This document shows, piece after piece, positions 27,647-49,727 of a stretch of 64,000 nt of DNA (position 1 is the stretch's first letter; each line of letters opens with the position of its first letter). This DNA is from Anaerolineae bacterium (lineage in GTDB: Bacteria; Chloroflexota; Anaerolineae; UBA7937; B3-Chlor), in NCBI GenBank assembly GCA_034411995.1, contig DAOUME010000022.1, forward strand, positions 3,965 through 67,964, written 5' to 3'. The notes below the pieces were generated by a model that did not search any database, had not been told where the DNA came from, and worked only from the letters and a program-made list of their open reading frames with translations. The translations under genes and the position numbers were made by a program.

Positions 27647-30600
27647 TTGGTGGCTCAAGAGGATCGCCCACAGGCAACCGCCCCGCCGGAGAGCCGTCGG
27701 GAGATCGAGGGTCTCGTCCAGCGCTTCGCCCGCAACCGCGACGTGTACACCCGCCCCGACTACAAAGAGACCCAGGTCCGCGTGGAGTTCATCGACCCCT
27801 TCTTCGAGGCCCTGGGCTGGGACGTGCGCAACGTCAAAGGGTACGCGGAACAGTACAAGGACGTGGTCCACGAGGACGCCATCAAGATCAGCGGGGCCAC
27901 CAAGGCCCCCGACTACTGCTTCCGCGTGGGCGGGGTGAGGAGGTTCTTCCTGGAGGCCAAGAAGCCCTCCACCGCGGTCAAGGGTGAGGTAGGCCCGGCC
28001 TACCAACTGCGCCGCTACGCCTGGAGCGCCAGGCTGCCCCTCAGTCTGCTCACCGACTTCGAGGAGCTCGCCGTCTACGACTGCCGCCAGCGGCCCCGGC
28101 CCACCGACAAGGCTGGCGTGGGCCGGGTGATGTATTACACCTTCGACCAGTACCTGGAGCGCCTGGACGAGATCTACTCCATCTTCGCCCGGGAATCGGT
28201 CCTCAAAGGCTCCTTCGACCGGTACGTGGAGGACACCAAACGCCAGCGCGGCACCAGCGAGGTGGACGTGGAGTTCCTCAAGGAGATCGAGGGCTGGCGC
28301 GACGAGCTGGCCCGCAACCTGGCCCTGAGGAACCCCCAGCTCTCCGTCCACGAGCTGAACTTCGCCGTGCAGCGCACCATCGACCGCATCATCTTCCTGA
28401 GGATGTGCGAGGACCGGGGCATCGAGAGGTATGGCGGCCTGCTGGGCCTGACCGCCGGTCCCCACGTCTACGACCGTCTGGGGGAGCTGTACCGCGAGGC
28501 CGATCAGAAGTACGACTCCGACCTCTTCGACTTCCAGGCGGACAGACTGACCAGGTCCCTCTCCCTCGACGACAAGACCCTCAAGCCCATCCTCTCCGGC
28601 CTGTACTACCCCGACTGCCCCTACGAGTTCTCCGTGCTCCCCCCGGAGATCCTGGGCCAGGTGTACGAGCAGTTCCTGGGCAAGGTCATCCGCCTCACCG
28701 CGGGCCACCGGGCCAAGGTGGAGGAGAAGCCGGAGGTGAAGAAGGCGGGCGGCGTGTACTACACCCCCTCCTACATCGTGGAGTACATCGTCCAGCAAAC
28801 GGTGGGTCGCCTCATCGAAGGCAAGACGCCCCAGCAGATCTCCAAGCTGCACATCCTGGACCCCGCCTGCGGCTCCGGATCGTTCCTGCTGGGCGCTTAC
28901 CAGCACCTGCTGGACTACCACCGGCGCTGGTACGAAGAGCACGACCCGGAGAAGTACGCCACGGCCAAGCGCCCCGCCCTGTACCAGGGCCGCGGGGGCG
29001 AGTGGCGGCTGACCACGGGGGAGAAGAAGCGCATCCTGCTCAACAACATCTACGGCGTGGACATCGACCGCCAGGCGGTGGAGGTGACCAAGCTGAGCCT
29101 GCTGCTCCAGGTGCTGGAGGGAGAGAGCCAGGAGACGTTGGGCCAGCAGTTGAAGCTGTGGCGGGAGAGGGCCCTGCCCGACCTGGGGGAGAACATCAAG
29201 TGTGGCAACTCCTTGATCGGCCCGGACTACTTTGAGGGGCAGTTGCTGCCCGACGAGGAGGAGATGCGCCGGGTGAACCCCTTCGACTGGGAGAAGGAGT
29301 TCCTCCAGATTATGAAGGCGGGCGGCTTTGACGCGGTCATCGGGAACCCGCCCTACATCCGCATCCAGAGGATCGAGCATAGCGTGGCGGACTACCTCTT
29401 CCGCTCCTATCGGGCTCCGACAAGCAAGACCGACCTCTCTCTGGTGTTTCTTGAGCGCGCTCTGGCCCTAGCAACGGACAGCGGACTTGTCGGCTTCATA
29501 TGCACGTCTCAGTGGCTGTCGACAGACTACGGGCGGAACATGCGGGCCATGCTGTCCGATGGGCGACTTCACCAAGTGGTCGACTTCGGCTCCCTGCCAG
29601 TCTTCCAGAAAGCCAATACATACCCTGCGATCCTGATCCTGAGCCCGACCCGATGCGACGCCCTTGCGCTTAAGCGGATCCGGCGAGGTGAACAGCTGAA
29701 CCTGCCGGGCATCCAAGCTACCGATCCGGTCTTGATCGATCTGGATGGACTATCGGACGACCCATGGAACCTTGGGCGTTTGGATATACCAACGCTGCTC
29801 GGCGAGCGCGGGCTCGAATGGAGACCGCTCAGCGCGTACGCGAACGCGTACATCGGAGTCCTGACCGGCATGGACAGGGCCTTCGTCGTCGAGACGAGGG
29901 CTGCCAAGCAACTCCAGTTGGAGACGGACCTGCTCTTGCCGTACGCGTACCGAGGGGCCGAAGTCCAGCGATATGCTCAGGTGGAGCCTGGGGCCCTGGT
30001 GATTTACCCGTACCGTGAAGGGCCAGGGGGCGCGCCGAGGCTCATCCCCGAACCAGAACTGAGGCGGCACTACCCGAATATCCACCAGCATCTCGTGGCT
30101 CACAAGGATGCTCTGCGTGAGCGAAGAGATAGCCGGAGATTCTACGCGAAGGGGCCAGACTGGTATCGTCACCTGCGCGCGGGCTCCTTCGACTACATTC
30201 ATGCCCGCAAGCTCCTCGTCAAGGGTATTGAGACCCGTACGGTCGTAGGCCTGTTGGACGCGGGGACAGCATTCAATGGCGCGAACTGTCCGGGCGTAAT
30301 CGTCGAAGAGCCACAACAACTCTCGCCTCTCTACATCCTGGGGATCCTCAATTCCGGCGTCATGTCGTATCACCTTCGGATGATCTGCCCGGCGAAGCTA
30401 GGCGGCTACACTAGATTCAATGCTCGCGGCATCAACAGTGCACCCATCCGCACCCTCAGTCGCACAGACCGGGCCGAGGAAGCCCGACACGACAAGATGA
30501 TCGCGCTGGTGGAGCGGATGTTGGACCTGCATGAGAAGCTGGCCGCGGCCACCATCCCCGCCGACAAGAAACTCTACCAGCGTCAGATCGAGGCCACAGA

Positions 30601-30679
30601 TGAGGAGATAGACGCGCTGGTGTATGAGTTGTATGGGTTGACCGAGGAGGAGATCGCTATCGTGGAGGGTCGGGCGTGA
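27647..30679 (+). CDS. Type IIG restriction-modification enzyme (single-chain endonuclease + N6-adenine methyltransferase + TRD; MmeI/Eco57I-like)
   Basis: 1010 aa; N-terminal PD-(D/E)xK-like region (APDYCFRVGG...FFLEAKKP), FxGxG-like SAM motif (ILDPACGSGSFLLGAY), NPPY motif (VIGNPPYIRIQ), and C-terminal methyltransferase-type tail DALVYELYGLTEEEIAIVEGRA. GTG start 9 nt after GAGGAGG. Confidence 0.8.
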   Translation: MVAQEDRPQATAPPESRREIEGLVQRFARNRDVYTRPDYKETQVRVEFIDPFFEALGWDVRNVKGYAEQYKDVVHEDAIKISGATKAPDYCFRVGGVRRFFLEAKKPSTAVKGEVGPAYQLRRYAWSARLPLSLLTDFEELAVYDCRQRPRPTDKAGVGRVMYYTFDQYLERLDEIYSIFARESVLKGSFDRYVEDTKRQRGTSEVDVEFLKEIEGWRDELARNLALRNPQLSVHELNFAVQRTIDRIIFLRMCEDRGIERYGGLLGLTAGPHVYDRLGELYREADQKYDSDLFDFQADRLTRSLSLDDKTLKPILSGLYYPDCPYEFSVLPPEILGQVYEQFLGKVIRLTAGHRAKVEEKPEVKKAGGVYYTPSYIVEYIVQQTVGRLIEGKTPQQISKLHILDPACGSGSFLLGAYQHLLDYHRRWYEEHDPEKYATAKRPALYQGRGGEWRLTTGEKKRILLNNIYGVDIDRQAVEVTKLSLLLQVLEGESQETLGQQLKLWRERALPDLGENIKCGNSLIGPDYFEGQLLPDEEEMRRVNPFDWEKEFLQIMKAGGFDAVIGNPPYIRIQRIEHSVADYLFRSYRAPTSKTDLSLVFLERALALATDSGLVGFICTSQWLSTDYGRNMRAMLSDGRLHQVVDFGSLPVFQKANTYPAILILSPTRCDALALKRIRRGEQLNLPGIQATDPVLIDLDGLSDDPWNLGRLDIPTLLGERGLEWRPLSAYANAYIGVLTGMDRAFVVETRAAKQLQLETDLLLPYAYRGAEVQRYAQVEPGALVIYPYREGPGGAPRLIPEPELRRHYPNIHQHLVAHKDALRERRDSRRFYAKGPDWYRHLRAGSFDYIHARKLLVKGIETRTVVGLLDAGTAFNGANCPGVIVEEPQQLSPLYILGILNSGVMSYHLRMICPAKLGGYTRFNARGINSAPIRTLSRTDRAEEARHDKMIALVERMLDLHEKLAAATIPADKKLYQRQIEATDEEIDALVYELYGLTEEEIAIVEGRA
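30548..30679 (+). repeat. Master copy (3-prime end of the RM gene) of a 35-130 bp direct repeat found five more times downstream
   Basis: GCCACCATCCCCGCCGACAAG...GAGGAGATCGCTATCGTGGAGGGTCGGGCGTGA; see partial copies at 31680, 33545, 34771, 37506 and 43994. Confidence 0.85.
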
Positions 30680-30789
30680 GCGGACGGCGCAGCTGGTCGA
30701 GCCGCACATCCGCTGGTAGGCGCGATGGCCCCGAATCTCGCAATCAGGGCAACCCAATGGGCAGCTAGGTTCGACAGCCGGCCGCGGCC

Positions 30790-31656
30790 GTGCGGATATT
30801 GGCTGGGCCGGGAGCGCGGAGAGTTGGAGTGACCGCAGTTGTAGGCGTAAGTTTCCTCTCGGAAGTCATAATGATCGCAGATACTAGGGTGTCCTGGCCA
30901 GGCGCCCCACGGCCACCAGCAGATATGTTGCGGAAGCTGTACCCGGTCTTTTCGCCGCGAACTCCACAAAAGGCAGCTGTGCTGGGTTTCTCCGGCACAA
31001 TATCGGCGGCCAAAACAGTAATGATACACCTCGTGAAGGACAAGCTTCGCAACTACAATCGGCCCCTGATAATGGTCAATCTGAAAGACCATTTGAAGTG
31101 CTGGATAGAAGAAGTGACGGTGACCTGCCTGAGTCCGAGGAGCAGAACCGGCCTCACCTTCATGCTCTGCGGGCTTGAACCCTCCCGCACTGCTGCTGCA
31201 AGAAAGGGAAACGCGCTCGTGAGGTATAGACAGATCTTGGAAACCCACATATACGTCTTCAGTGTGAGCCAGAGCACCGGCAGAGTAGACGTGGTGAAGA
31301 AAGGCCTCTTCGCCGTCATTGGCTCGGGTGCAACACTCGAGCGAGAGCTGAAACGGAAGATTCCGCCAATGATCAGGTTCGGATTCAACCAGCCGAATCT
31401 GCATTGGGCACGAGCTCGCTTGGTGGGCGAAGTAGCGCGAGGAGTTTTTGACAGCGGCGGCGCAACCACAGTTGGCGGACCGTTTCAAGTGTTCCGCATC
31501 ACAGCAGAAGGCTTGGTCACCGAGTACATCTGGCCGGCAAGTATACAACCAAGAGACGTCAGCGTACGACAAGAAGGCCAAAAGACCATAATACAGAATC
31601 GAGACCTCAACCAGACTTACACGCTCCATCCCATATGGGACCTGCCATTGCAGTAG
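30790..31656 (+). CDS. Hypothetical protein, weak resemblance to Ntn-hydrolase / HslV-proteasome-like fold (cassette A)
   Basis: Segments AVLGFSGTISAAKTVMIHLVKDKL and LFAVIGSGATLERELKRK resemble HslV/proteasome-beta motifs (IAGFAGGTADAF.., AIGSGG..). The start is uncertain (GTG 30790 or ATG 30874). Lower GC than surrounding sequence. Confidence 0.4.
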   Translation: MRILAGPGARRVGVTAVVGVSFLSEVIMIADTRVSWPGAPRPPADMLRKLYPVFSPRTPQKAAVLGFSGTISAAKTVMIHLVKDKLRNYNRPLIMVNLKDHLKCWIEEVTVTCLSPRSRTGLTFMLCGLEPSRTAAARKGNALVRYRQILETHIYVFSVSQSTGRVDVVKKGLFAVIGSGATLERELKRKIPPMIRFGFNQPNLHWARARLVGEVARGVFDSGGATTVGGPFQVFRITAEGLVTEYIWPASIQPRDVSVRQEGQKTIIQNRDLNQTYTLHPIWDLPLQ

Positions 31657-31679
31657 TGGGCGAACCAGCAAGTGGCGCC

Positions 31680-31811
31680 GCCACCATCCCCGCTGACAAG
31701 AAGCTCTGCCAGCGCCAGATGGAGGCCACCGATGAGCAAATCGACGCGCTGGTGTACAAATTGTATGGGGTGACGGAGGAAGAGATCGCTATCGCGGAGG
31801 GCCGGGGTTGA
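31680..31811 (+). repeat. Direct repeat copy 2 of the RM-gene 3-prime end (about 130 bp, about 88% identical), ends in TGA
   Basis: GCCACCATCCCCGCTGACAAGAAGCTCTGCCAGCGCCAGATGGAGGCCACCGATGAGCAAATCGACGCGCTGGTGTACAAATTGTATGGGGTGACGGAGGAAGAGATCGCTATCGCGGAGGGCCGGGGTTGA. Translated in frame it reproduces ATIPADKK...ALVYKLYGVTEEEIAIAEGRG*. Confidence 0.85.
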
Positions 31812-31851
31812 CAGCCAGAAACCCGATGCGGTAGGGACCTAGACGGGCGGC

Positions 31852-33510
31852 TTGCGGCATGACCAGACCGGCCTCCTCTCGCAGAGCGCAAGGCCGGGCA
31901 ATGCAGCGACCGGGGGCATCAGGGGAAATACATTGACAACCATCTCGCAGGGTGAACTGAACAACCTGAGCGTGCTCATCGTGGAAGATGCGCGGCAGGC
32001 TCTGGAGATGCTACTACGGTATCAGCAGAAGTACCGCGACGACATCAATTTCGCCGCGAACAAAGGAGGTTTGCTGATTGACATTGGTAGTCGTCTCGGC
32101 GACACCGGTGTTGTACGGCAGGGCATGGCGTCGATTGATGAGTTGCTGCCGAGGGCTGGTGAGCAATCTCGTCCCCTTCTCCTCTACAATCTAGGCAACG
32201 GGTATATGGCGTTGCACTCCATTGCTCGGCGCCAACCTGGCTTCTCATTCGACCCCGATGACACTAGACTCCGTGAAGCCAAGCGCTGTTACCGCGGCGT
32301 GCTGGGAGGATCAGAGCGTCTTGATGCCAACCAACGCGCTGGACTCCGAGTGAACTATGGCAACTGTCTCGCGAGTCTTGGCCGTTCCCTCGAGGCAATC
32401 CACCAATACGAGACGGCTCTCCGCCACGCGCCCAATCACCCCATGGCATGGGGGAACCTGGGAGTTGAGTTGGAGCGCTTCGCGTTCGTTGGTCAAGACC
32501 CGGCCATCCTGCGGGCTGCGAATGAAGGGCTACTCAGGGCTCTTGCAGATGATAGCCTTGAGCAAATGGGAGAGGATTCGGCGCGCCCCGGTTTCGAAAA
32601 GGCGCAGCAACGTATTGCACGGCTGTTGAGCCAGCTTGTAGAAGACGCGGGACTGGGCGGGCCCGAGGTGCCCCAGGCCGCGACACCGTATCATCAAGCG
32701 TACAGCGAGTTCTGTGTGAAGCATGAACTCTTCCTGAATTTCTGTCTGAAGGGCCGCCCATGCCAGCGGGTGGCTGAAGATGCTGTCAGTTTGTCAATTA
32801 CCACGCCACTTGATGACGAGACGACCTACCCTCGGCTCGCACGAGTGGTCAACGAGATCAAAGAACGATACGCGGTCGCCCGCCTACTGCTGTTCGAAGC
32901 CTGCAATCCGCCTCTTGACACTCAGCCATATGACGAGATGACCTACTACGCGGACAATCTCGACTACGCCGTATACGGGATTGGTCCCACCAAGCTGAAG
33001 CTGGCCTTTGAAAGTGCCTACAACATCTTGGACAAGCTGGCCTTCTTCGTCAACGACTATCTCGATCTGGGGATCAAGGTGCGGCTGGTGAGTTTTCAGG
33101 GGCTATGGAAGGAGCGCAAGACGGCCGCTCTCAGGCCTGCGATTGTCGAACGTGGTAATTGGCACCTGTATGGCCTGTACGACCTCTCCAAAGACCTAGC
33201 ACCGACAGGCTACCTTGAGCACCTGCGGCTCACCCGAGACTATCTAACACACCGCTATCTGGTGCTCCATGTTGAGGGGCTAGATTGGCTAACGTCCGCC
33301 GATGGTCCTGGGTACCACTCGGGCTACCGCCAGTTGCTGACCAACACGATCGAATTGATGCGACTCGTCCGCAGTGCGGTCATCTACCTCATCGCCTTCA
33401 TCGACCGAGAGGAGCGCGCGAAACGCCAAGACGGAGAGGGCTCTATTGCACCCATGCGTGTCCCGCCTTATAGGCCTTACCGGTTGGGTCCGCAGGATGC
33501 TCCAATGTAG
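31852..33510 (+). CDS. TPR-repeat protein with C-terminal HEPN-like domain (candidate defence/abortive-infection effector; cassette B)
   Basis: TPR-like helical repeats in the N-terminal half (LLYNLGNGYMALH..., YETALRHAPNHPMAWGNLG). C-terminal region with Rx4H motif (LRLTRDYLTHRYLVLH) in a context resembling LA2681/Abi-type HEPN domains. Confidence 0.5.
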   Translation: MRHDQTGLLSQSARPGNAATGGIRGNTLTTISQGELNNLSVLIVEDARQALEMLLRYQQKYRDDINFAANKGGLLIDIGSRLGDTGVVRQGMASIDELLPRAGEQSRPLLLYNLGNGYMALHSIARRQPGFSFDPDDTRLREAKRCYRGVLGGSERLDANQRAGLRVNYGNCLASLGRSLEAIHQYETALRHAPNHPMAWGNLGVELERFAFVGQDPAILRAANEGLLRALADDSLEQMGEDSARPGFEKAQQRIARLLSQLVEDAGLGGPEVPQAATPYHQAYSEFCVKHELFLNFCLKGRPCQRVAEDAVSLSITTPLDDETTYPRLARVVNEIKERYAVARLLLFEACNPPLDTQPYDEMTYYADNLDYAVYGIGPTKLKLAFESAYNILDKLAFFVNDYLDLGIKVRLVSFQGLWKERKTAALRPAIVERGNWHLYGLYDLSKDLAPTGYLEHLRLTRDYLTHRYLVLHVEGLDWLTSADGPGYHSGYRQLLTNTIELMRLVRSAVIYLIAFIDREERAKRQDGEGSIAPMRVPPYRPYRLGPQDAPM

Positions 33511-33544
33511 TCCCCAGGTGCCGCGTGCAGAACTCTAGTTCGGG

Positions 33545-33598
33545 GTGCTAGTGTATGAGTTATATGGGTTGACCGAGGAGGAGATCGCGATTGTCTGA
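33545..33598 (+). repeat. Direct repeat copy 3 of the RM-gene 3-prime end (about 55 bp), ends in TGA
   Basis: GCTAGTGTATGAGTTATATGGGTTGACCGAGGAGGAGATCGCGATTGTCTGA. Confidence 0.8.
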
Positions 33599-33631
33599 AG
33601 GGCTTCCTCAGCGCAGAGAGTAGGCTGTAGC

Positions 33632-34135
33632 ATGATTCAGCCTTGGAGCGACCCCATACCGTACGACCTATCCCGCACGCTGCGTCGGGCAAGTGTCCCG
33701 CCGGGGTTCAGCAGTAGTGTGCCGCAGACTCCGGGTACGTACGTGATCTATTGCACCGCTCAACCAGACCTATGTGAAGCTATCATTGATATCGGAGAAG
33801 CTGGCCCGCGCGCCAAAGCGAGACCAAAGGGCCTCCGAGGGAGGCTGGCAACTACAGTTGCCCACACGGCCTCTGAAAGGATGGCCGCTGACGTACAGGC
33901 CGGCAAACTCCCGAACAGACTCCGTGTAGTTTGGATCGAGAGGCCGTCCAAAGAGGACGCCAAGGAGTTACAGGACGCACTTATCAGCCTCTTCCGAACG
34001 GATTGCGGACGCCAGCCGCGACACAACAAGAGACTGGAGCAGCACCCAAAGCCTGAGGCCTTCCTGGCGATTTGCGCCGCCCTGAAGAGGCACATTGGCG
34101 GCCTATTGCGCCACCCGACGGCCCGCTGCGGGTGA
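33632..34135 (+). CDS. Hypothetical protein with GIY-YIG-like nuclease motif (cassette C)
   Basis: PGTYVIYCTAQ...AIIDIGEAG...R..E spacing resembles GIY-(10-11)-YIG with downstream Arg/Glu; weak and unverified. Confidence 0.35.
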   Translation: MIQPWSDPIPYDLSRTLRRASVPPGFSSSVPQTPGTYVIYCTAQPDLCEAIIDIGEAGPRAKARPKGLRGRLATTVAHTASERMAADVQAGKLPNRLRVVWIERPSKEDAKELQDALISLFRTDCGRQPRHNKRLEQHPKPEAFLAICAALKRHIGGLLRHPTARCG

Positions 34136-34245
34136 CCAGACCGGCGTGCCCCAGGTTGGAGTGAGCGCTGCCCCCCGGCGGGCTCAGCCCGAGGGGGCCG
34201 GGGGCAAATCGTTCGGTGCAACAGCAGAATCAAAGGAGGAGGAGA

Positions 34246-34691
34246 TGTCTGAGTTGCTCACTGCTATCGGCGTCGTATCAGCCGCTAGTGTGTCGATCCT
34301 TAGTGTCTTTGTCCCTTCTTACTACGACAGGCAGCACCGCAAGGAGGAGAAAGCCGACGCCGAACTCCGAAGAATAGACGAGACTACCTTGGGTTTTCTA
34401 GCACAGCTCTCGAACTTCCGGCATTGGGAACCCAGGAGCCTTCAGAAGATCGCGGGGGATCGTGCACTAGAGCATCTCTACACCGACTTGCAGGTAGCGC
34501 AGTATGCTTGGGAGCGCGCCGTTTGGCCAAAACTGGGTGATCAAGACCGCGCCAAGGTCGAGACCATCCGCACAAGGCTTGAAGGGGTCCATACCGCCAA
34601 CGACCTGTCGAGACGCGCAAATGAGTCGGATGTTCCTGCATTGGCAGATCAAATCCTCGCATTGGCTCGTGCCGCAAATGGACGGCCCTAG
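34246..34691 (+). CDS. Hypothetical small membrane-anchored protein (cassette C)
   Basis: ATG directly after GGAGGAGGAG; N-terminal TM helix (LLTAIGVVSAASVSILSVFV) then a charged helical region. Confidence 0.4.
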
Positions 34692-34770
34692 TCGACCAAG
34701 TGTGTTTGGTTTTGGTGTACAGTGTGCACTGACGCACAGCTGCTTCGGCCCAACAATGGCTTGACCCCAT

Positions 34771-34848
34771 GGGGAGATCGACACGTTGGTGTATCACTTG
34801 TATGGGTTGACGGAGGGAGAGATCGCTATCGTGGAGGGGCGATCGCTG
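34771..34848 (+). repeat. Direct repeat copy 4 of the RM-gene 3-prime end (about 78 bp), ends in TGA
   Basis: GGGGAGATCGACACGTTGGTGTATCACTTGTATGGGTTGACGGAGGGAGAGATCGCTATCGTGGAGGGGCGATCGCTGA. Confidence 0.85.
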
Positions 34849-35029
34849 AACGCGCTGCGCGGACCGGCTACCCCGAAACAGAGTTCGGTGATCTCTCGGG
34901 GCTCGGATGTGGCATGGTGATGGGGACCAACGTTGGGCCACTGCGCCAGTTGAGGTGACTGGGTGGAAAGATGTCCGCATAATCATTAGTTAGCACGCTT
35001 CACGCCGCTGACGCTCGGGAAGGAAAACC

Positions 35030-36085
35030 ATGAGCAAAGAAATCCTAGTGAGAATGGACATACCAATCCCCGCTCACAAAATCGTCAATACACCTGCCAT
35101 GGTTTTCAGCAGGTGGATGCCTCTGGACGAGGATGAGTCTATTGTAGTCCAAGAGGAAAACGCCACCCTGAGGTTATGGTTCGACAGAAGTTGCTGGCAT
35201 AACGTGACTCACGCGGGAGGAGACATACCTAATCACGTGAATGTTCTCGTAGACAAGGTATTCGCAGATGTAACGCTCCGCGACTTGTCTGAGGGTTTAG
35301 TAGACTACATTGAACTCACAGCCACTGAACCTCACCCTCCAGAGAGCCCCTACCAGCAAGAGTACCGGGAGCTAGGACAGAAAGTGTACCTTCTAACTCT
35401 CACCTACCTGAACAGATTGATTAACTACGCACGAAGCATGAAGGGGCAATACTGGCTACAAGAATACCCCCTTAGCGAAGCTGAGGGCCTGTCTACTGTC
35501 AACCTGGCTTTCAAAGCCCGTGTCCTAATCGACTCTGAATGGGTTAGGTGGTTCCCGGATGTCAGGCAGCTAGTTATCGGCAGGGTGGGAGGCTGTCAAG
35601 ACAGAGAGCGTTTCATAGACAAGGACTCCTGGTCACAGGTCAGGAGCTTCATCACATCAAAGCAACGGGCCTCACTTGTCCGGGAACTCCTCGCCGGGGC
35701 AGAGTGGCTCGCTGGAATTGGGCACCGCAGAAGTGCATTGACAGAAGCAATAACAGCACTTGAAGCCGCAATCACCACATTCTCAAACCAGCCCAAAGCA
35801 GAGGAAGCTTTCGGCTCTCTTATTACGGAGAGAATGAACGTGAGCTCACTGAGCAATTGGACTGAAAAGATGGGTTTGTCGGGCACCATTCACTACCTCT
35901 TCCCACTGGTATTCTCTGAAGAGATGATGCCCACCGACATTCTGACAGATTGTCAGGAGGCGATACTAGAGCGCCAGAATGTGGTGCACAACGCTCAGCG
36001 AGATGTTCAGGAAGATAAGCTGTCAGTGTACCTGGAGGCAATTCGCAATATGTGTCGCCTGCTCGAAACTTACCAGCAAACTTAG
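35030..36085 (+). CDS. Hypothetical protein, 351 aa, markedly lower GC (cassette D)
   Basis: AT-richer codon usage than the flanking DNA. No recognisable domain; a C-terminal Rx4H (ERQNVVH) could be an HEPN-like motif or chance. Confidence 0.45.
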   Translation: MSKEILVRMDIPIPAHKIVNTPAMVFSRWMPLDEDESIVVQEENATLRLWFDRSCWHNVTHAGGDIPNHVNVLVDKVFADVTLRDLSEGLVDYIELTATEPHPPESPYQQEYRELGQKVYLLTLTYLNRLINYARSMKGQYWLQEYPLSEAEGLSTVNLAFKARVLIDSEWVRWFPDVRQLVIGRVGGCQDRERFIDKDSWSQVRSFITSKQRASLVRELLAGAEWLAGIGHRRSALTEAITALEAAITTFSNQPKAEEAFGSLITERMNVSSLSNWTEKMGLSGTIHYLFPLVFSEEMMPTDILTDCQEAILERQNVVHNAQRDVQEDKLSVYLEAIRNMCRLLETYQQT

Positions 36086-36259
36086 TACCTAGTCACGCAG
36101 TCCATCCCGAGAAGAGCGTGGTAACAGGTCGCTGGCGGCGACAGCCCCTGTCGGTGCCAGGCTGCGTGTGGAGCGACGACTCGGCGATACTCCAGGCTAG
36201 CGGAAGAGCGTCGACGAGAAGACTCAGGCACGCGAAATGACCTATCGCTTCTACGAGAA

Positions 36260-36460
36260 TTGTGCGTGCGACCCAAGAAGGCGAAGATACATTTCTCCAA
36301 TTGCAGGTCCTGCAACTACGGATTAGGAAAAAACAAGCACAAGGTGGAAGGGCTTCACGGGAGATGGCACGGCCCATTCTCGACGTTCGAGGAGGCATGG
36401 GACGCAGCACAACACACCGGCAAGAAGCCGACCACCTGCGGCCACTGCAGACCTCGGTGA
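36260..36460 (+). CDS. Possible small zinc-ribbon protein (two CxxC pairs)
   Basis: SNCRSC...TCGHC in 66 aa. TTG start and no clear RBS, so low confidence. Confidence 0.2.
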   Translation: MCVRPKKAKIHFSNCRSCNYGLGKNKHKVEGLHGRWHGPFSTFEEAWDAAQHTGKKPTTCGHCRPR

Positions 36461-36574
36461 GAGGGGCGGCGCTGCGCCTTGTGCGCTTGCGCGCCGCTGG
36501 TCCAGCTCTACCCAAGCAGACCGCTCTGCCATGGAGGGGTCAATCACCCAGGCACCCAGCGACACCTTCGTAGA

Positions 36575-36593
36575 GGCGGGTCTGAGACCCGCC
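36575..36593. repeat. Palindrome GGCGGGTCTGAGACCCGCC (member of the GGGTCTSAGACCCGCCC repeat family)
   Basis: Perfect 9+1+9 palindrome followed by CGCAAG, the same tail as the copy at 46635. Confidence 0.6.
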
Positions 36594-36734
36594 CGCAAGC
36601 GGCCTCCCGATTCGTCATGGTCGTTCGCACAAACCTCGGCCGGTGCGCCGGTTTGGAGCACCACGCGCGACGCTGTCGGCCAGGCAGCTCGGATCAAAGA
36701 GCTCCATAGTCACGAGTGAGGGACTAGCAACGTC

Positions 36735-37478
36735 ATGAGCATTCGTTTACTCGATTGCGCGCCGATGGCTCCCCGGTACCCACGGTGGCACCTGGGGACT
36801 CCCTGTCTGCTCGTCGACACCGACCAGGGCCTCGTTCTCGTCGATACCGGCCTCGGCCTGCACGACTTTCTGGCCCCAGGGCCCCTGGTCCGCCTCTTCG
36901 CGTGGGCTTTGCGCTTCCCTCACGATCCCGAGCACGCCGCCGTGCGCCAGCTCTCGCGCCTGGGCCACGACCCCGAATCTGTCCGGCACATCGTGATGAC
37001 CCACCTCCATTTCGACCACGCCGGGGGCCTTCCCGACTTCCCCCACGCTCAGGTTCACGTACACCGCCGCGAGTACGAGGCCATGCTCCATCCTCGCAGT
37101 CTGCTAGAGCTGGGCTACGATGGCCTCGATTTCGCCCATGGGCCCTCCTGGGTTCTCTACGACCAACCCACCGAGGACTGGCTCGGGTTCGAGGCTTTCC
37201 GGCTGCCCTTCACGCCGGAGATGTATCTCGTCCCACTCTTCGGCCACACCCGCGGCCATTGCGGGGTAGCCATCCAGGACGATGATGGTTGGGTCTTGCA
37301 GTGTGCCGACGCCCTGCCCACGAATGCTGACTTCGACCTCACCCCGCCATGGCTCAACCGTTTGGTGATCGGACCGCACGTTGCCAGGTTGCGGGAGTGG
37401 GCTTGCCGCCATCCCGAAGTTCGCCTGTTGGCCGGGCACATGCGGCACCCTTTCCCCGATCACAAGGGCGAAGTCTGA
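36735..37478 (+). CDS. MBL-fold metallo-hydrolase
   Basis: HxHxDH motif (MTHLHFDHAGG) and downstream His/Asp ligands (GHTRGH). Confidence 0.8.
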   Translation: MSIRLLDCAPMAPRYPRWHLGTPCLLVDTDQGLVLVDTGLGLHDFLAPGPLVRLFAWALRFPHDPEHAAVRQLSRLGHDPESVRHIVMTHLHFDHAGGLPDFPHAQVHVHRREYEAMLHPRSLLELGYDGLDFAHGPSWVLYDQPTEDWLGFEAFRLPFTPEMYLVPLFGHTRGHCGVAIQDDDGWVLQCADALPTNADFDLTPPWLNRLVIGPHVARLREWACRHPEVRLLAGHMRHPFPDHKGEV

Positions 37479-37505
37479 GAGTCCCCGGCCGAAGCGGACC
37501 CGACT

Positions 37506-37544
37506 GGAGAAGAGATCGCTATCGTCGAGGGCCGGAATTGCTGA
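37506..37544 (+). repeat. Direct repeat copy 5 of the RM-gene 3-prime end (about 39 bp), ends in TGA
   Basis: GGAGAAGAGATCGCTATCGTCGAGGGCCGGAATTGCTGA. Confidence 0.8.
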
Positions 37545-37836
37545 ACCGCTGAGGCCAGCTTCGCAAGGCCAGGCCTGACACCCGCCCCTACCAACCCCCC
37601 AGCCCTGCGTGCGGCGGGCCTTTCTTTGCCCAACACAGACTCGCGAAAGAACCTGAGCTCAGCATACACTTGCGGCAGCTAGCCCTTCTGGCGCCACTGA
37701 GTGCCGCCCGGACACAGCCCATTGGCGAGGACAAACGTGCGCCTGAGGCGCCAGATGGCTTGACGGCGCCGAACGATATCCCCATAATCACTAGTTGGGA
37801 GGACACAACAGGAGGGAATATGAAAGAGCGCGAATC

Positions 37837-38832
37837 AGTATGGGAAGATTGAGAGTCGGCTTGCTGAACAAGAAACGGGGCAACTTTGCACTCGAAGAAA
37901 GGTTCATAGGCCCCGATGGCGTCGTTGATAGGACGAACGCCGAAGCAGAACATCACCAGCGGGCCCTGACCGAAGCCGGTTACGTTGTCCGCCAGATTCG
38001 CTGGGGCCCTGATTTCATCAACGATCTACAGGCTTCCCCAGTCGATCTTGTGTTCAACGTTTCCAGTCTGGTAGAAGCCGCGATCCTCGAAGAATTGCAG
38101 ATACCCTACGTGGGCTCCGATACGTTCACCATCGCCATCGCCACCGACAAATCGCTGGCGAAAAGGCTCTGGCAGCAGGCGGGCCTGCCGACATCGCCTT
38201 TCTGGCTGGCCAGATCGCAGAAGGACTGTGGCCTGTTTGGGGGCATCCCACCCTTCGAGTATCCCCTGTTCGTCAAGCCGGTGGCCGGCCGAGGCAGCGC
38301 AGGGATCGACGACACGTCCATCGTTCACAGCTACGACCAACTGGTCAGCGCAGTTGTGGAAAGGCTGGAGACTATCGGTCAACCAGTCCTCATAGAGAAG
38401 CTGCTGCGGGGCAGAGAAATCACCCTGGGCGTCCTGGGAAATGAGCGCGCAAGGGCCCTTCCTCCATTAGAGATCGCGTATTGCGAGGGGGATGACACAC
38501 TGACTTTCGAGAAGAAAGAGTTGGACAACGATACCTTCCTCTGCCCTGCTCCGCTGACCGCTGAAGAGACCCACACCATGCAGCAATTGGCGCTTCGGGC
38601 CTACCACGTGTTGGGCTTCAGGGACTTTGGCCGAATTGACACGATCTTGACCGACGAAGGGCCGTGCTTGTTGGAGGGGAACACTTTCGCGGGGCTCATG
38701 TGCACACCCAAGGAGAAACCTCGTAGCTATATTGGCTTCATGGCTCGCGCAGAGGGAAAGGACGGCAAGGCTCTGCTGGATGAGATCATGCAGATAGCTA
38801 TCAGGAGACTCAACTTGAAAGCCTGTGATTGA
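37837..38832 (+). CDS. ATP-grasp enzyme of the D-alanine--D-alanine ligase family
   Basis: Ddl-like N-terminal and ATP-grasp patterns (LRVGLLNKKRG..., EYPLFVKPVAGRGSAGI, ITLGVLG). The ORF was trimmed to the ATG at 37837. Confidence 0.7.
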   Translation, partial: SMGRLRVGLLNKKRGNFALEERFIGPDGVVDRTNAEAEHHQRALTEAGYVVRQIRWGPDFINDLQASPVDLVFNVSSLVEAAILEELQIPYVGSDTFTIAIATDKSLAKRLWQQAGLPTSPFWLARSQKDCGLFGGIPPFEYPLFVKPVAGRGSAGIDDTSIVHSYDQLVSAVVERLETIGQPVLIEKLLRGREITLGVLGNERARALPPLEIAYCEGDDTLTFEKKELDNDTFLCPAPLTAEETHTMQQLALRAYHVLGFRDFGRIDTILTDEGPCLLEGNTFAGLMCTPKEKPRSYIGFMARAEGKDGKALLDEIMQIAIRRLNLKACD

Positions 38833-39436
38833 GATGTCAGTACCTCGGATAGAGATAGAACTCGACAAACTGAGCCATAACGCCCGCAAGCTGATAGCTC
38901 TATACGGTTCCAAGCGAATCCACATCGTGGCTGTCACGAAGGGGCTCTGTGGCTCTCCCAGGATTGCGAATCCTCTGCTCAAGAGCGGATTCCGCTGCTT
39001 CGGCGACTCACGCACCCCCAACGTACGAGAGCTGCGCGAGGGTGGCATAGATGCGCAATTCACCTTCATCCGCTCCCCCATGCCCAGCCGGGTCGAGCGA
39101 GTGCTCGAATCTGACGACGTAAGTCTCGATACAAAGATCGCCGTTATGCAGCTTCTTGCCGATGAGGCCACCAGATGTGGCAGAAGCCATCGAGTCAGTC
39201 TGATGGTTGGGCTGGCCTATCTACGGGAGGGCATACTACCCTCCGATCTCGAGCCGGTGGTGAAGGGGATCATTGGCATGCAAGGCATGGATCCACTTGT
39301 CTCCGGCAGGCTGCGGGACGATAATCTGCTGGGCTGGGGTAGTGCCCGCCCGTGGGAGGAAAGGGCAGGCCCAGCGTGCTCATCCGCGTGGATCGGCGGA
39401 AGGGTCGCGCCTGATTCTCTCCCTGAGCAGCGATGA
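38825..39436 (+). pseudogene. Alanine-racemase-like N-terminal (PLP-binding barrel) fragment, apparently truncated or frameshifted
   Basis: LIALYGSKRIHIVAVTKGLCGS resembles the alanine racemase N-terminal domain. Only about 200 aa are present, the C-terminal 60 aa look like out-of-frame read-through, and the ORF overlaps the downstream ADH start. Confidence 0.35.
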
Positions 39437-39483
39437 CCTTCGAGCAGTCGAACCGGCGCGGTTCGGAAAGGAGGGCTACACCA

Positions 39484-40512
39484 ATGTCTGCTTCAACCAT
39501 ACTGGGATACGCCGCGAGGGCGGTGGGACAACCGCTCGAGCCCTTCACCTACGAGCCGCCGCCGTTGGACGAACACGACGTGCGGGTTTCTGTCACTCAC
39601 TGCGGCGTCTGCCACACCGACGTCCACGCCATCGACGACTACTACGGAATCACCACCTATCCCTTCGCGCCCGGTCACGAGATCGTGGGCTACGTCTCGG
39701 ATGTGGGCCCGGCAGCGTCCGGCCTGAAGGAAGGGGACAGGGTGGGCATAGGCTGGCAGGGCCGTTCTTGCGGGCAGTGTGAGTGGTGCTTGAAGGGAGA
39801 AGAGCAACTGTGTATGGACATCGTCCAGGCGGCAACCTGGCTCCCCTACGGAGGGTTCTCCTCCTCCGTCGTCGTGGACAGCCGCTTCGCCTACGGGCTC
39901 CCTGACGGTATGCCCTCGGAGATAGCCTCGGTGCTCATGTGCGCCGGGATCACCGTCTACTCTCCCCTCCGCTCCTTCGCCGCGCCACCCTCGCAGAAAC
40001 TCGGCATCGTCGGCGTGGGAGGGCTGGGCCATCTCGCCCTACAGTTCGCCCGCGCCTTCGGCTACGAGGTCACCGCCATTTCCTCGTCCCCAGAGAAGAA
40101 GGAGCAGGCGCTGGCCTTCGGCGCAGACCACTTCGTCGTCTCGGACCAGGCCAGCCTGTCCGAGCTCGAGTTCACCTTCGACCTGCTGCTATGCACCGCC
40201 AGCGGCAAGATCGACTGGGTGCCGCTGCTGGACACTCTGAAGAAGAACGGCAAGATGATCCTCGTCGGCTTCCCCGACGTGGAGCTCAATTCGACCGACC
40301 TGGTGGCGCACCAACTCTCCATCCTCACGTCCTTCCTGGGCAACCGGGCGCGAATGCGGGAGATGCTGTCGTTCGCGCAGGCCCACGGCATTACCCCCGC
40401 CATCGAGCAAATGCCCATGTCGGAGGTCAACGAAGCCCTTCAGAGAGTGAGAGACAACCAGGCCCGCTACCGCATCGTGCTCGTCAACGAGACGGAGAGC
40501 ACAGGGGCCTAG
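39484..40512 (+). CDS. Zinc-dependent alcohol dehydrogenase (MDR family)
   Basis: CGVCHTDVH, GHEIVGYV, a structural-zinc Cys cluster (CGQCEWCLKGEEQLC) and GxGxxG (GIVGVGGLGH); ATG at 39484 with GGAGGG RBS. Confidence 0.85.
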   Translation: MSASTILGYAARAVGQPLEPFTYEPPPLDEHDVRVSVTHCGVCHTDVHAIDDYYGITTYPFAPGHEIVGYVSDVGPAASGLKEGDRVGIGWQGRSCGQCEWCLKGEEQLCMDIVQAATWLPYGGFSSSVVVDSRFAYGLPDGMPSEIASVLMCAGITVYSPLRSFAAPPSQKLGIVGVGGLGHLALQFARAFGYEVTAISSSPEKKEQALAFGADHFVVSDQASLSELEFTFDLLLCTASGKIDWVPLLDTLKKNGKMILVGFPDVELNSTDLVAHQLSILTSFLGNRARMREMLSFAQAHGITPAIEQMPMSEVNEALQRVRDNQARYRIVLVNETESTGA

Positions 40513-40590
40513 TCCCCCCTTCCCTCACGGGTGATCTGGTCCAGCCAGACTCGCACCATTACTGCTCAGACTACGGCACAGGAGGCCACC

Positions 40591-41823
40591 ATGGATTACG
40601 ACTTCGACGCCGAGGTCGACCGCCGAGGCACCGACTCTCTGAAATGGGAGTTCATACAGAGCGACGAAGATCCGCTGAAGTGGGAGCTCACCGATTCTTT
40701 CTTCGGAGAAGACCGTACCCTCCCCTTGTGGGTGGCGGACATGGACTTCCCCTGTCCCCAGCCGGTAGTGGATGCGCTGGTGGCCAGGGCCCAGCACGGG
40801 ATCTACGGCTACACCATGCCCTCTCCCGCCTTCTATCGATCCGTCGTCGGCTGGATGCGGAGACGGCACGGGTGGGAGATAGCGCCCGAATGGATCTGTA
40901 TCACCCCTGGGGTCGTGCCGGCCGTCAACATGCTGGTCCGCGCCTTCGTCGCCCCTGGCGACAAAGTACTGATCCAGCCCCCGGTCTACTATCCTTTCTA
41001 CTCCGCCATCGAGAACAACGGCGCCGAGCTGGCCCTCAACCCCCTGATCTACGAGGACGGTCGCTATCGCATGGACCTGGCGGACCTGGAGGCCAAATGC
41101 CAGGATCCTCAGGTCAAGCTGGCCATCCTGTGCAGTCCGCACAACCCCGTGGGGCGCGTGTGGACCCCGGAGGAGCTCCGCCGCTTTGGGGAGATCTGTA
41201 TCGACAACGACGTGCTCGTCGTCTCTGACGAGATCCACGCCGACCTGATCTTCAAAGGTCACGTGTTTACGCCCTTCGCCAAGGTCAGCGAACCCTTCGC
41301 CCAGCATTCCGTCACCTGCACCGCGCCCAGCAAGACCTTCAACCTGGCCGGGTTGCAGACCTCTTGTATCGTCATCCCCAATCACGATCTGCGCTCCGTC
41401 TTCGATAGAATCGTGCAGAGCAACGGGCTGGTCACCGTCGGCACCTTCGGCGCGGTTGCCCTTCAGGCCGCGTACGATCTTGGAGAGGAATGGCTGGGGC
41501 AGCTTCTCGACTATCTCCAGGGGAACCTCGAATACCTCGAGCAGTACGTGGCGGAGCAGATCCCGCAACTATCCGTGGTGCGACCAGAGGGGACCTACCT
41601 GGTCTGGCTCGACTGTCGCCGGCTTGGGCTCAGCAAGTGGGGGCTAAAGCAACTCATGCTGGAGGAGGCGAGAGTCTATCTCGACGAGGGTTTCGTGTTC
41701 GGCCCCCAGGGTGAGGGCTTCGAACGTCTCAACATCGCTTGCCCCCGAGGAGTCCTGGCTGAGGCGCTCGATCGAATCAGGCAGGCCGTGGAAAGCCTGC
41801 CGGCCGGACCGATGTCCGCGTAG
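40591..41823 (+). CDS. PLP-dependent C-S lyase / aminotransferase class I-II (MalY/PatB-like)
   Basis: GTDSLKWE N-terminus, PLP-Lys region (SPHNPVGRVW...S.SKTFNLAGL). Start set at MDYDFDAEVD. Confidence 0.75.
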   Translation: MDYDFDAEVDRRGTDSLKWEFIQSDEDPLKWELTDSFFGEDRTLPLWVADMDFPCPQPVVDALVARAQHGIYGYTMPSPAFYRSVVGWMRRRHGWEIAPEWICITPGVVPAVNMLVRAFVAPGDKVLIQPPVYYPFYSAIENNGAELALNPLIYEDGRYRMDLADLEAKCQDPQVKLAILCSPHNPVGRVWTPEELRRFGEICIDNDVLVVSDEIHADLIFKGHVFTPFAKVSEPFAQHSVTCTAPSKTFNLAGLQTSCIVIPNHDLRSVFDRIVQSNGLVTVGTFGAVALQAAYDLGEEWLGQLLDYLQGNLEYLEQYVAEQIPQLSVVRPEGTYLVWLDCRRLGLSKWGLKQLMLEEARVYLDEGFVFGPQGEGFERLNIACPRGVLAEALDRIRQAVESLPAGPMSA

Positions 41824-41881
41824 CCGGTCGCTGAGCAGCCCCACGCCGTGCTCGTCACATCTCCCAGAGGGTTACAGGAAG

Positions 41882-42886: not shown

Positions 42887-42897
42887 CGATGACCCGT

Positions 42898-42959
42898 GGG
42901 GGTGGGTCTCAGACCCGCCCCTACGCAGGTGCCCTTGCTACGTGGGGTGATCTCACCCC
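42898..42959. repeat. Dispersed about 50-60 bp repeat (GGGGGTGGGTCTCAGACCCGCCCCTACGCAGGTGCC..TTGCTACGTGG) containing two hairpins
   Basis: About 90% identical to 45063..45110; the core palindrome GGGTCTSAGACCC also occurs at 36575 and 46635. Confidence 0.7.
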
Positions 42960-43066
42960 CGCATACCGTCCGGGCCTGAACAGACATGTCGGCATAGCCA
43001 GTAATCAGCCGCCCCGTCGTGGTACTCACGGTCCCGCTTCGTGGGCAAGGGTAGAGCGGAGGGAGA

Positions 43067-43882: not shown

Positions 43883-43993
43883 CGACCGCGGCCACGTCGT
43901 AGAAAGTGCAGCGCAAAACGGCAGGTGTCGAATGGATTGTGTTCATAGGGGCGACGGCCCATAAGGCGCTACAGGGCCAGACTCGGGCCACCG

Positions 43994-44030
43994 CTGGAGA
44001 GATCGCTACGGTGGAGGGGCGGGACCGCTG
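43994..44030 (+). repeat. Direct repeat copy 6 of the RM-gene 3-prime end (about 37 bp), ends in TGA
   Basis: GGAGAGATCGCTACGGTGGAGGGGCGGGACCGCTGA. Confidence 0.75.
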
Positions 44031-44047
44031 AGAACAGCGAGGGCGCA

Positions 44048-44078
44048 CTGTAGGGGCGAGTCGGCGACTCGCCCCTAC
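44048..44078. repeat. REP-like palindrome CTGTAGGGGCGAGTCGGCGACTCGCCCCTAC
   Basis: 13-bp perfect arms with GTAGGGG/CCCCTAC ends, located directly after direct-repeat copy 6. Confidence 0.7.
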
Positions 44079-49655: not shown

Positions 49656-49727
49656 CCACGCGGAGACATGTGCGCACAGTCATCGGTCAGGCACAGTCCC
49701 GAAGTATGAGATCAAAGGGAGGGAGAA

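Follow-up and report, generated by a model that had tools for sequence, protein, structure and literature searches.

The window analysed here, a 64-kb stretch of an Anaerolineae (Chloroflexota) chromosome, contains a hypervariable island that begins where a type IIG restriction-modification (RM) gene has its 3' end. Matches of LepA to proteins named Anaerolineae point to this source. Between two repeat copies in this island lie a gene for a 351-aa protein (p351), a small Cys-rich mini-ORF and a gene for an MBL-fold metallo-hydrolase, all three on the same strand (Table 1). Repeat copy 4, the left edge of what the original prediction treated as a single cassette, is what decay has left of the final ~115 nt of a type IIG RM gene, with the peptide trace ..EIDTLVYHLYGLTEGEIAIVEGRS. 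Repeat copy 5, rightly predicted to close that cassette, comes from the 3' end of such a gene, of which it keeps a short stretch (..TGEEIAIVEGRN), and accompanies the MBL gene both in the window and in a related array locus (L022). Copy 4 is followed by a leader element belonging to a ~135-nt repeat family, which carries a sigma70-like promoter detected by promoter scan (GTGACT at 34955-34960, a 17-nt spacer and CATAAT at 34978-34983) and ends in TAGTTAG immediately 5' of p351-specific DNA. A Shine-Dalgarno-like GGAAGGA is found 7 nt 5' of the p351 coding sequence.

Table 1. Coordinates of features in and upstream of the p351 region, with the evidence or remark for each.
Feature	Position	Strand	Evidence or remark
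Type IIG RM gene	27647-30679		upstream
LA2681-like HEPN gene (PF18733)	31852-33510		two slots upstream of p351
Repeat copy 4	34738..34856	+	repeat families D2/D3; nhmmer tail profiles; RM-frame translation
Leader element, ~135-nt repeat family	34858..34999	+	promoter scan
p351 unit	34990..36135	+	blastn and junction comparison
p351 CDS (351 aa)	35030..36085	+	ATG start; ORF list, sequence; identical protein on record (P0001)
N-terminal alpha/beta domain, aa 1-175	35030..35554	+	
C-terminal HEPN-fold domain, aa 198-347	35621..36070	+	
R315-Q-N317-V-V-H320, Rx4H motif of HEPN ribonucleases	35972..35989	+	homologue alignments
Mini-ORF unit	36187..36476	+	tblastn, translations, blastn
REP-like GC-rich hairpin (GTAGAGGCGGGTCTGAGACCCGCC), then partial leader copy	36570..36666	+	pattern search
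MBL unit	36663..37563	+	blastn; includes short RM-tail remnant
MBL CDS, 247 aa, HLHFDH motif	36735..37478	+	Pfam Lactamase_B 8.6e-15
Repeat copy 5	37502..37549	+	repeat search, RM-frame translation, nhmmer

The p351 gene (GC 0.508, GC3 0.577) deviates more in composition than any other gene within the window. Compared with a baseline of 30 genes within the window (GC 0.623 +/- 0.026, GC3 0.783 +/- 0.039), its z-scores are -4.5 for GC and -5.3 for GC3, which bears out the prediction that it is AT-richer than its surroundings. The unit that carries it extends from 40 nt before the ATG to 50 nt beyond the stop codon, consists of one gene and has no space for another. This unit is the sole stretch that the window has in common with the closest relative (L014/L015; 88% DNA identity by blastn), where the surrounding context is unrelated to the window, and p351 occurs in none of the 63 related array loci examined, sister strains included. 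The recent foreign origin originally proposed for the gene is supported by its GC3, by this relative elsewhere and by its absence from the array loci; judged from composition and homology, p351 appears to be a single-gene unit recently gained by horizontal transfer. Carriage by phages or plasmids was also considered and rejected, with no p351 found in INPHARED, PLSDB or IMG/VR.

The protein falls into two domains. The N-terminal alpha/beta domain has conserved positions W29, P31, F51, N71, Y112 and N128-R129 and a K138-G-Q-Y-W-L motif, and no structural relatives of it were found. The C-terminal half is all-alpha with the four-helix core of the HEPN fold and carries, in R315-Q-N-V-V-H320, the Rx4-6H motif of the HEPN superfamily. 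Across 94 full-length p351 homologues H320 is invariant and R315, N317, V318 and V319 are at least 90% conserved, and in a 27-sequence set R315, N317 and H320 are all invariant; the C-terminal Rx4H (ERQNVVH) noted in the original prediction is therefore well founded. Searches of p351 against Pfam, NCBIfam and PADLOC gave no match, including no significant match to any Pfam HEPN model, so the earlier statement that no domain could be assigned stands at the sequence level. The sole trace of a HEPN model within the family was HEPN_RiboL-PSP, in 5 of the 94 members (best E 0.0088), and at E <= 0.01 none of p351, the mini-ORF and the MBL protein matched a PADLOC-DB v2 family. The p351 family, previously undescribed, ends in a HEPN ribonuclease-type domain, and its fold and motif make a single-gene HEPN RNase with a defence or toxin effector role the most likely identity of p351.

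The label of orphan does not fit p351: its relatives make up 118 clusters when grouped at 90% identity, and 1,137 representatives at the 50% level match it with E <= 1e-3. The family is rare, with about 1,100 members among 1.84 billion representatives, and patchy across phyla. An architecture of ~350 aa is constant in the best 150 of the 1,137 representatives; other architectures sharing the N-terminal domain were sought and rejected, as the shorter and longer matches inspected were truncated or frameshifted copies. Homologues were AT-richer than their surroundings in seven of eight loci and occur as solitary genes amid island-type neighbours, such as TIR and protein kinase genes (L026), kinase, DUF4365 and DUF4238 genes (L028), integrase and HipA genes (L029), HNH/Mrr, SymE and integrase genes (L002) or MNT/HEPN and AbiEii genes (L016). 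An all-against-all comparison of neighbours at 13 independent loci found none that was conserved, and four further loci assessed from gene tables had variable neighbours only, giving a total of about 17.

The mini-ORF unit aligns by blastn to positions 4216-4505 of another array locus (L085) with 78.7% identity. It encodes a small Cys-rich protein (..KIHFSNCRSC..GRWHGPF..EA..CGHCRP) that is 72% identical to a 74-aa ORF of L085 and 40% identical to one of 73 aa in L022. In both of these loci it forms its own tail-flanked unit with an RM-tail copy directly 3' and other neighbours; in the window this tail is mostly lost. The ancestral ATG lies at 36238; beyond codon 8, near 36261-36264, a net 1 nt has been deleted, so that the window holds a frameshifted copy, or one that restarts at TTG 36260. 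The ORF predicted at 36260..36460 thus exists and represents a real 74-aa Cys-rich family, but the copy in the window is frameshifted. The stretch between the mini-ORF and MBL units, with its hairpin and a partial leader copy at 36596-36666 (nhmmer leader match; repeat families D7/D10), is filler. The MBL unit has 88.8% identity to L022 9928-10830 (blastn), and the encoded protein scores 55.6 bits against Pfam Lactamase_B (cut-off 22.7) and has the HxHxDH motif, in agreement with the predicted MBL fold. The gene is host-typical in GC3 (0.78) and is kept at 85-92% amino acid identity in L021 and L022, beside different genes in each.

In many related contigs from Anaerolineae, single genes of shared orientation are parted by remnants of RM genes, often fused to the ~135-nt leader. 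The window and array loci together contain 45 leader copies, frequently straight after a tail. The inter-repeat segments have a median length of ~1.3 kb and usually contain one ORF that ends 2-200 nt short of the next repeat; the longest ORF is co-oriented in 80 of 90 segments, and the 114 ORFs fall into 86 families. Slots between RM tails in sister arrays hold Drt4 (4e-180), Drt6, PDC-S11/S18/S19, a CBASS cyclase with a 2TM effector, PIN_8 and Mrr. Also among the cargo are many metabolic genes (Ddl-like, Alr-like, ADH, aminotransferase), so position in an array is by itself no proof of a defence role. Comparisons of L056 with L040, of L043, of L077 with L084 and of an ADH scar in L022 reveal internal deletions that have left the repeats as gene remnants, and these scars suggest repeated gain of RM gene plus cargo followed by erosion of the RM gene. 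A tail peptide under selection was rejected, as copies contain stops and frameshifts (the third-position excess is mild, at 0.22/0.21/0.28), and a sharp left tail boundary due to site-specific recombination was rejected on the broad spread of left ends, 60-220 nt, an analysis confounded by uneven conservation of the RM gene. Searching 27-47 kb against Rfam gave no match at E <= 1, and literature searches on the tail peptide or on RM-anchored cassette arrays gave nothing relevant.

Two readings would place p351 within a larger mobile entity. One of these, close to the novel two- or three-gene defence or toxin module of the original prediction, joins p351, a zinc-binding mini-protein and the MBL hydrolase in a single defence or toxin-antitoxin module that is mobile between repeat copies 4 and 5. 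Their shared orientation between two repeat copies, with no repeat detected in between, would fit such a module, as would a weak precomputed match of the MBL gene to Anti-Pycsar_Apyc1. However, no homologue of the MBL gene, the mini-ORF or the type IIG RM gene lies near p351 homologues at the 13 independent loci, and the four further loci agree; p351 and MBL genes, whose co-occurrence in other genomes had been proposed as a check, occur together at none of the 13. DNA homology splits the region into the three units of Table 1, the MBL gene recurs elsewhere next to other genes, the mini-ORF is frameshifted, and GC3 is sharply unequal across p351, mini-ORF and MBL gene (0.58, 0.72 and 0.78). Since p351 shares no neighbour across its loci and the mini-ORF and MBL gene are found elsewhere beside others, the cassette dissolves into three separately distributed units. 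The three-gene module was rejected on the neighbourhood comparison and block-wise homology, the module reading is already largely refuted, and we consider what is left of it highly improbable. On this sequence comparison, the mini-ORF and MBL hydrolase appear as unrelated passengers, not partners of p351. What endures of the prediction is a toxin or defence role for p351 itself, which its HEPN fold and conserved motif make reasonable.

The other reading takes the whole array for a chromosomal integron or integron-like platform, with repeat plus leader as the recombination site and p351 as a mobile gene cassette. The array does consist of diverse, co-oriented single-ORF units between repeated elements, as integron arrays do. 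Its cargo is cassette-typical (acetyltransferases, CAT, DinB, methyltransferases, defence genes), cassette order is shuffled among strains, and leaders end in GTTAGGC or GTTGGGC, which fits the core GTTRRRY, with p351-specific DNA starting from G|TTAGCAC. Against this, tblastn with IntI1, a query that Pfam recognises as Phage_integrase, found no such tyrosine recombinase in the 64-kb window at E < 1, nor at E <= 0.01 in array loci totalling 343 kb. Neither tails nor leaders have a hairpin or imperfect palindrome (fold z-scores -0.6 to +1.2): the alignment of nhmmer leader copies shows no consensus hairpin and no covariation, and tails fold no better than shuffles. A pattern scan of the array for attC R''(RYYYAAC)/R'(GTTRRRY) pairs with folding gave none, and the deletion comparisons above identify the repeats as gene remnants. 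A classical integron was rejected for the lack of IntI, attC-like folding and R''/R' pairs in these sequences, and an integron-like platform seems improbable.

We lean, if only slightly, towards three independent passengers in the island, with p351 as a solitary HEPN toxin-like gene encoding a latent RNase. We propose that p351 is transcribed from the leader promoter and that its two domains are joined by a flexible linker. The HEPN domains might pair into a dimer with a composite active site, and the fused N-terminal domain could keep the protein inactive until a cue linked to infection is sensed; this sensor or inhibitor role is pure inference, given that the domain lacks any structural relative. 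The cell would then be arrested through RNA cleavage, following the logic of abortive infection or of a self-contained toxin. RNase toxins that stand alone, without an antitoxin, are unusual, so p351 might not be toxic at all. It could instead be a non-catalytic or housekeeping-type HEPN protein (a ligand or nucleotide adaptor, or a factor in RNA metabolism) that was carried along and is unrelated to conflict. We regard this as unlikely, given that the catalytic-type Rx4H is kept throughout the family, that the family is rare, patchy and AT-richer than its hosts, that homologues adjoin integrases, toxins and defence-type genes, and that p351 is missing from sister strains.

A more far-reaching extension of the solitary HEPN gene is that p351 founds a single-gene anti-phage system with a new fused sensor, in an island that stockpiles defence genes without a recombinase. 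We offer it tentatively, as a possibility that is doubtful in its full form. A fast-turnover type IIG RM gene would repeatedly import blocks of RM gene, promoter leader and cargo, and superseded RM copies would erode to tails of 60-200 nt, leaving Anaerolineae populations with an integron-like bank of over 80 cargo families. Should p351 prove an active HEPN effector, it would be a compact single-gene addition to the RNase-based mechanisms of abortive infection with a new regulatory domain, and its N-terminal domain would be a candidate for a new infection sensor. The island may document how defence islands are built through RM gene turnover with no dedicated recombinase. The tail core GAGATCGCTATCGTSGAGGG together with the leader could serve as a simple signature for mining uncharacterised defence candidates from Chloroflexota metagenomes, in the way that integron cassettes are mined.

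Several known systems resemble parts of this locus. With the single-protein HEPN RNases AbiV, AbiD/AbiF-type Abi_2, RnlA/LsoA and Csm6/Csx1, p351 shares the C-terminal four-helix HEPN fold with Rx4H, a non-HEPN domain preceding the RNase domain, and a solitary position in island or defence contexts; it differs in having no sequence match to any of them. In contrast to the CARF domain of Csm6 and the N-terminal domain of RnlA, its own N-terminal domain is without structural relative, and unlike RnlA-RnlB and LsoA-LsoB it has no adjacent antitoxin. The toxins of HEPN-MNT pairs (SO_3166-SO_3165, PDB 5yep; 7ae2) are ~130-aa, single-domain proteins that always adjoin an MNT nucleotidyltransferase, whereas p351 has 351 aa, an extra fused domain and no conserved neighbour; no MNT antitoxin gene recurs beside it across the 13 loci, and the unit in the window has one gene. 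The LA2681-like protein, likewise HEPN, lies in the same island downstream of a type IIG RM remnant, and both genes are low in GC3. Neither hhalign nor sequence comparison relates the two proteins; the LA2681-like protein has an N-terminal TPR in contrast to the unknown fold of p351, and is RM-linked, whereas p351 homologues elsewhere are not beside RM genes. The MBL protein, for its part, shares fold and HxHxDH motif with the AiiA-AttM quorum-quenching lactonases, its nearest named relatives (best matches AiiA-type structures, E ~3e-16), but is far under the NCBIfam equivalog cut-offs for AHL lactonases (64.1 against 390 bits for AttM, 55.9 against 375 for AiiA) and is unlinked to p351.

The array as a whole invites comparison with the sedentary chromosomal integrons that a preprint (bioRxiv 10.1101/2024.07.02.601686) describes as banks of defence cassettes. 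As these are portrayed there, both are long arrays whose units share one orientation, mostly hold a single gene and are set apart by a repeated element, and both carry cargo of great diversity, streamlined defence systems among it, which is shuffled from strain to strain. The array studied here differs in lacking IntI and attC, and what recurs in it is a type IIG RM gene's eroded 3' end, joined to a promoter leader.

The gene encoding the 351-aa protein (p351) is the most deviant in the window, with a GC content of 0.508 and a GC3 of 0.577 compared with 0.623 ± 0.026 and 0.783 ± 0.039 for the 30 window genes that served as a baseline (z = -4.5 and -5.3). It is missing from all 63 related array loci, and its acquisition was therefore strain-specific and recent; the AT-richness and the recent foreign origin claimed for it in the original prediction are thus both borne out. 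Homologues of p351 are AT-richer than their flanks in seven of eight loci, and none were found in phage (INPHARED), plasmid (PLSDB) or IMG/VR collections. An independent Logan assembly (L001) matches the window without difference across 29040-43870.

As anticipated from the sequence, p351 has no match in Pfam, NCBIfam or PADLOC. It is not the orphan it was taken for: a word-indexed search returned 118 clusters (90% identity) made up entirely of hypothetical proteins, which occur in Pyrinomonadaceae, Anaerolineae, Burkholderia, Bacteroidales, Polyangiaceae, Obscuribacterales, Planctomycetales and Sneathiella. An exhaustive profile search spanning 1.84 billion representatives yielded 1,137 (50% identity) at E ≤ 1e-3 and 309 at E ≤ 1e-30. 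The family is rare yet widespread, and its best 150 of the 1,137 representatives are, almost without exception, ~350 aa long. The label 'NurA' on a Burkholderia homologue is unsupported, being based on a faint match. The C-terminal Rx4H motif (ERQNVVH) is present as described; across 94 full-length members H320 is invariant and R315, N317, V318 and V319 are at least 90% conserved, and the same level of conservation is seen at R234, along an ALTEAxTALE helix and, within the N-terminal half, in a KGQYWL motif. In the AlphaFold2 model (pLDDT 86.7), residues 1-175 form an alpha/beta N-terminal domain, which a linker modelled at low confidence joins to a wholly helical C-terminal domain (residues 198-347), very probably a HEPN domain. 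Sequence models barely see it, HEPN_RiboL-PSP matching 5 of the 94 members with a best E of 0.0088. p351 is a candidate HEPN effector whose partner domain is novel.

The original prediction united p351, a small Cys-rich ORF (mini-ORF), a metallo-hydrolase gene (MBL) and a closing fifth repeat copy in one candidate defence or toxin module, 'cassette D' (34849-37544). All of these elements exist, and the proposed two- or three-gene module was rejected by neighbourhood comparison and by the separate DNA homology blocks. We compared ~17 independent loci with p351 homologues, 13 by search and four by gene tables. In the first 13, tblastn located neither MBL nor the mini-ORF nor a type IIG gene near the homologue, and when the flanking ORFs were compared all against all, no neighbour recurred; the other four had variable neighbours only. 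The homologues stand alone, set off by long spacers, and their surroundings resemble islands, with a TIR protein and a kinase at one locus, a kinase, DUF4365 and DUF4238 at a second, and elsewhere integrase and HipA, HNH/Mrr, SymE and integrase, or MNT/HEPN and AbiEii (three loci). The closest relative (L014/L015; 84% aa and 88% DNA identity) shares with the window only the p351 coding sequence plus 40 nt upstream of the ATG and 50 nt past the stop, in an unrelated context. Direct repeats of a different kind (~60-190 nt, 76% identity) surround this relative, which may therefore sit in another repeat-bounded array. Since p351, the mini-ORF and MBL have distinct histories, 'cassette D' is, as judged by sequence homology, three units. 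The earlier interpretation thus holds for foreign origin and a toxin-like nature, and fails for the multi-gene module.

Coordinates of the features discussed (window positions unless another locus is named)
Feature	Coordinates	Remarks
p351 gene	35030-36085	+ strand, 351 aa
ERQNVVH motif	35972-35989	within p351
Units of 'cassette D'	34990-36135; 36187-36476; 36663-37563	p351; mini-ORF; MBL
Mini-ORF	36260-36460	66 aa
MBL gene	36735-37478	
Type IIG RM gene	27647-30679	
Tail copies (profile matches)	30543-30680; 31673-31812; 33472-33609; 34738-34856; 37502-37549; 43989-44035	first is the live gene end; 37502-37549 is repeat copy 5
Leader copies	34858-34999; 36596-36666; 37655-37802; 45235-45319; 49647-49692	first three before p351, MBL and the Ddl-like gene
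REP-like hairpins	36570-36600; 37575-37595; 42898-42945; 44050-44078; 45062-45109; 46635-46664; 24948-24959	
First slot after RM gene	30583-31671	
288-aa ORF of that slot	30790-31656	+ strand, GC3 0.62
LA2681-like HEPN gene	31852-33510	552 aa, with TPR
Ddl-like/Ala-racemase-N-like pair	37795-39436	GC3 0.70 and 0.65
Tandem units	58611-59168	within - strand ORF 58595-60103
LepA	17944-19746	
Repeats around p351 relative	L014 3560-3618; 5018-5076	
301-aa protein	L022 8898-9803	directly upstream of MBL

The array of restriction-modification (RM) gene tails and leaders is a more unusual feature than p351 itself. The repeat family of the window corresponds to the 3' terminus of a type IIG RM gene (Eco57I, N6_Mtase and TaqI_C domains; PADLOC REase_MTase_IIG, 2.5e-226), whose product terminates in IDALVYELYGLTEEEIAIVEGRA. 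The window holds six copies of this tail, and the sister loci L021 and L022 hold six and seven. A search of metagenome contigs with the tail core identified 58 loci; in many of them, 2-6 copies share one orientation. The 90 inter-tail segments (median ~1.3 kb) usually hold a single ORF that stops 2-200 nt short of the next tail, and in 80 of them the longest ORF is co-oriented. Their cargo, 114 ORFs in 86 families, includes Drt4, Drt6, PDC-S11/S18/S19, a CBASS cyclase with a 2TM effector, PIN_8, Mrr, a C5 methylase, UvrD and AAA_15/21, along with metabolic genes. Tail-separated single co-oriented cargo genes recur in L021, L022 and L030-L087, with tails that are copies of the last 60-200 nt of a type IIG RM gene. 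The leader, a conserved element of ~135 nt with a sigma70-like promoter (GTGACT-17-CATAAT), terminates in TAGTTRGGC; its 45 copies often lie immediately 3' of a tail and precede many cargo genes, and its end is the exact start of p351-specific DNA. Its final bases match the integron core GTTRRRY, without a hairpin partner. GC-rich REP-like hairpins with GTAG/CTAC ends (e.g. GTAGGGGCGAGTCGGCGACTCGCCCCTAC) are concentrated at intergenic spots of the array.

An integron was rejected as an explanation of the array, as no IntI, attC-like folding or R''/R' pairs turned up in the window and array loci searched. An IntI1 query, validated as a tyrosine recombinase, had no tblastn match in the window, nor in the 343 kb of array loci, and Pfam annotation of the array-flanking genes (lepA, an MFS transporter, glycosyltransferases and methyltransferases) revealed no recombinase. 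Tails folded no better than shuffled sequence, no consensus hairpin was found in the leader, and a scan of the array for R''/R' pairs was negative. Direct comparisons of loci show, through deletion scars, how tails arise. Relative to L040, L056 carries a 2,614-nt deletion that leaves the RM gene's initial ~47 codons joined to its final ~180 nt (5-nt overlap); in L043, a full RM gene is preceded by an RM N-terminal fragment fused to a tail. L077 and L084 are 99.6% identical across 3.7 kb; in L077 the RM gene is swapped for a different type IIG gene and a 103-aa gene, and a 280-nt 3' remnant is left. An ADH scar in L022 consists of a leader and the last 75 nt of the ADH gene, its stop codon mutated. 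Tail right ends cluster at the stop codon, and left ends range from 60 to 220 nt upstream.

We propose that blocks of RM gene, leader and cargo were acquired repeatedly at the locus, that erosion of redundant RM copies would proceed from the left side, with the right end shielded by the promoter leader, and that homologous exchange between repeated modules could shuffle the content. GC3 is lowest in the genes nearest the live RM gene (z -3.0 to -5.3), which fits proximal entry of new DNA; most of the distal array genes (ADH, AT and GDPD) are host-like in GC3, with DinB and DUF1801 as distal exceptions. The window and L022 have a common backbone order (RM - ... - HEPN_LA2681 - mini - MBL - ADH - aminotransferase), and o167 - o148 - tail 4 - leader - p351 is a window-specific insert.

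Several other features accompany the array. The LA2681-like HEPN protein (PF18733, 4.4e-46), 65% identical to its L022 copy and followed by a degenerate tail, lies two slots upstream of p351; profile comparison detected no relation between them, and the island therefore has a second HEPN protein unrelated to p351. Two readings of the first slot downstream of the RM gene are possible, the 288-aa ORF and, on the - strand, a 362-aa ORF, the latter picked by the gene caller for L001; neither has a family match. The low-GC3 pair of Ddl-like ATP-grasp and Ala-racemase-N-like genes, behind a leader copy, is not in L022 and recurs in L045 (89% and 70% aa identity). Three tandem 186-nt units are 74-76% identical. 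The best named matches of LepA are Anaerolineae/Chloroflexota MAGs (74-85% identity).

p351 combines single-gene mobility in conflict-type contexts with a HEPN fold and a conserved Rx4H, and we have moderate confidence in a defence or toxin role. It might act as a dimeric RNase held inactive by the fused N-terminal domain, speculatively a sensor, until an infection-linked cue releases it and growth arrest follows.

Sequence comparison indicates that the mini-ORF belongs to a real protein family. Its L085 homologue is intact at 74 aa (MTYHFYENWTVRPEKAKIHFSNCGSC...GTWHGPF...CGHCKPR) and 72% identical to the window copy, and the L022 homologue has 73 aa and 40% identity; tails lie on both sides in L022 and directly 3' in L085. 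The window copy retains the ancestral ATG (36238, MTYRFYEN) with a net 1-nt deletion, and the originally predicted frame therefore begins at TTG 36260. The MBL protein (Lactamase_B, 8.6e-15; HLHFDH motif) has a host-like GC3 of 0.78, and its unit, short tail included, is 88.8% identical to L022 DNA. Other members of its 90% cluster, in L021 and L022-L025, adjoin different genes: a 94-aa ORF upstream and a DinB-like gene downstream in L021, whereas in L022 the MBL gene lies between a 301-aa protein on its upstream side and a 227-aa protein on its downstream side. The C terminus of the 301-aa protein weakly matches both Nuc_deoxyrib_tr (E 3e-4) and a CAP12/Pycsar TIR model (E 0.08); this protein may be another effector candidate. 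The MBL protein itself is only distantly similar to the AiiA/AttM lactonases, its scores falling far under the equivalog cut-offs.
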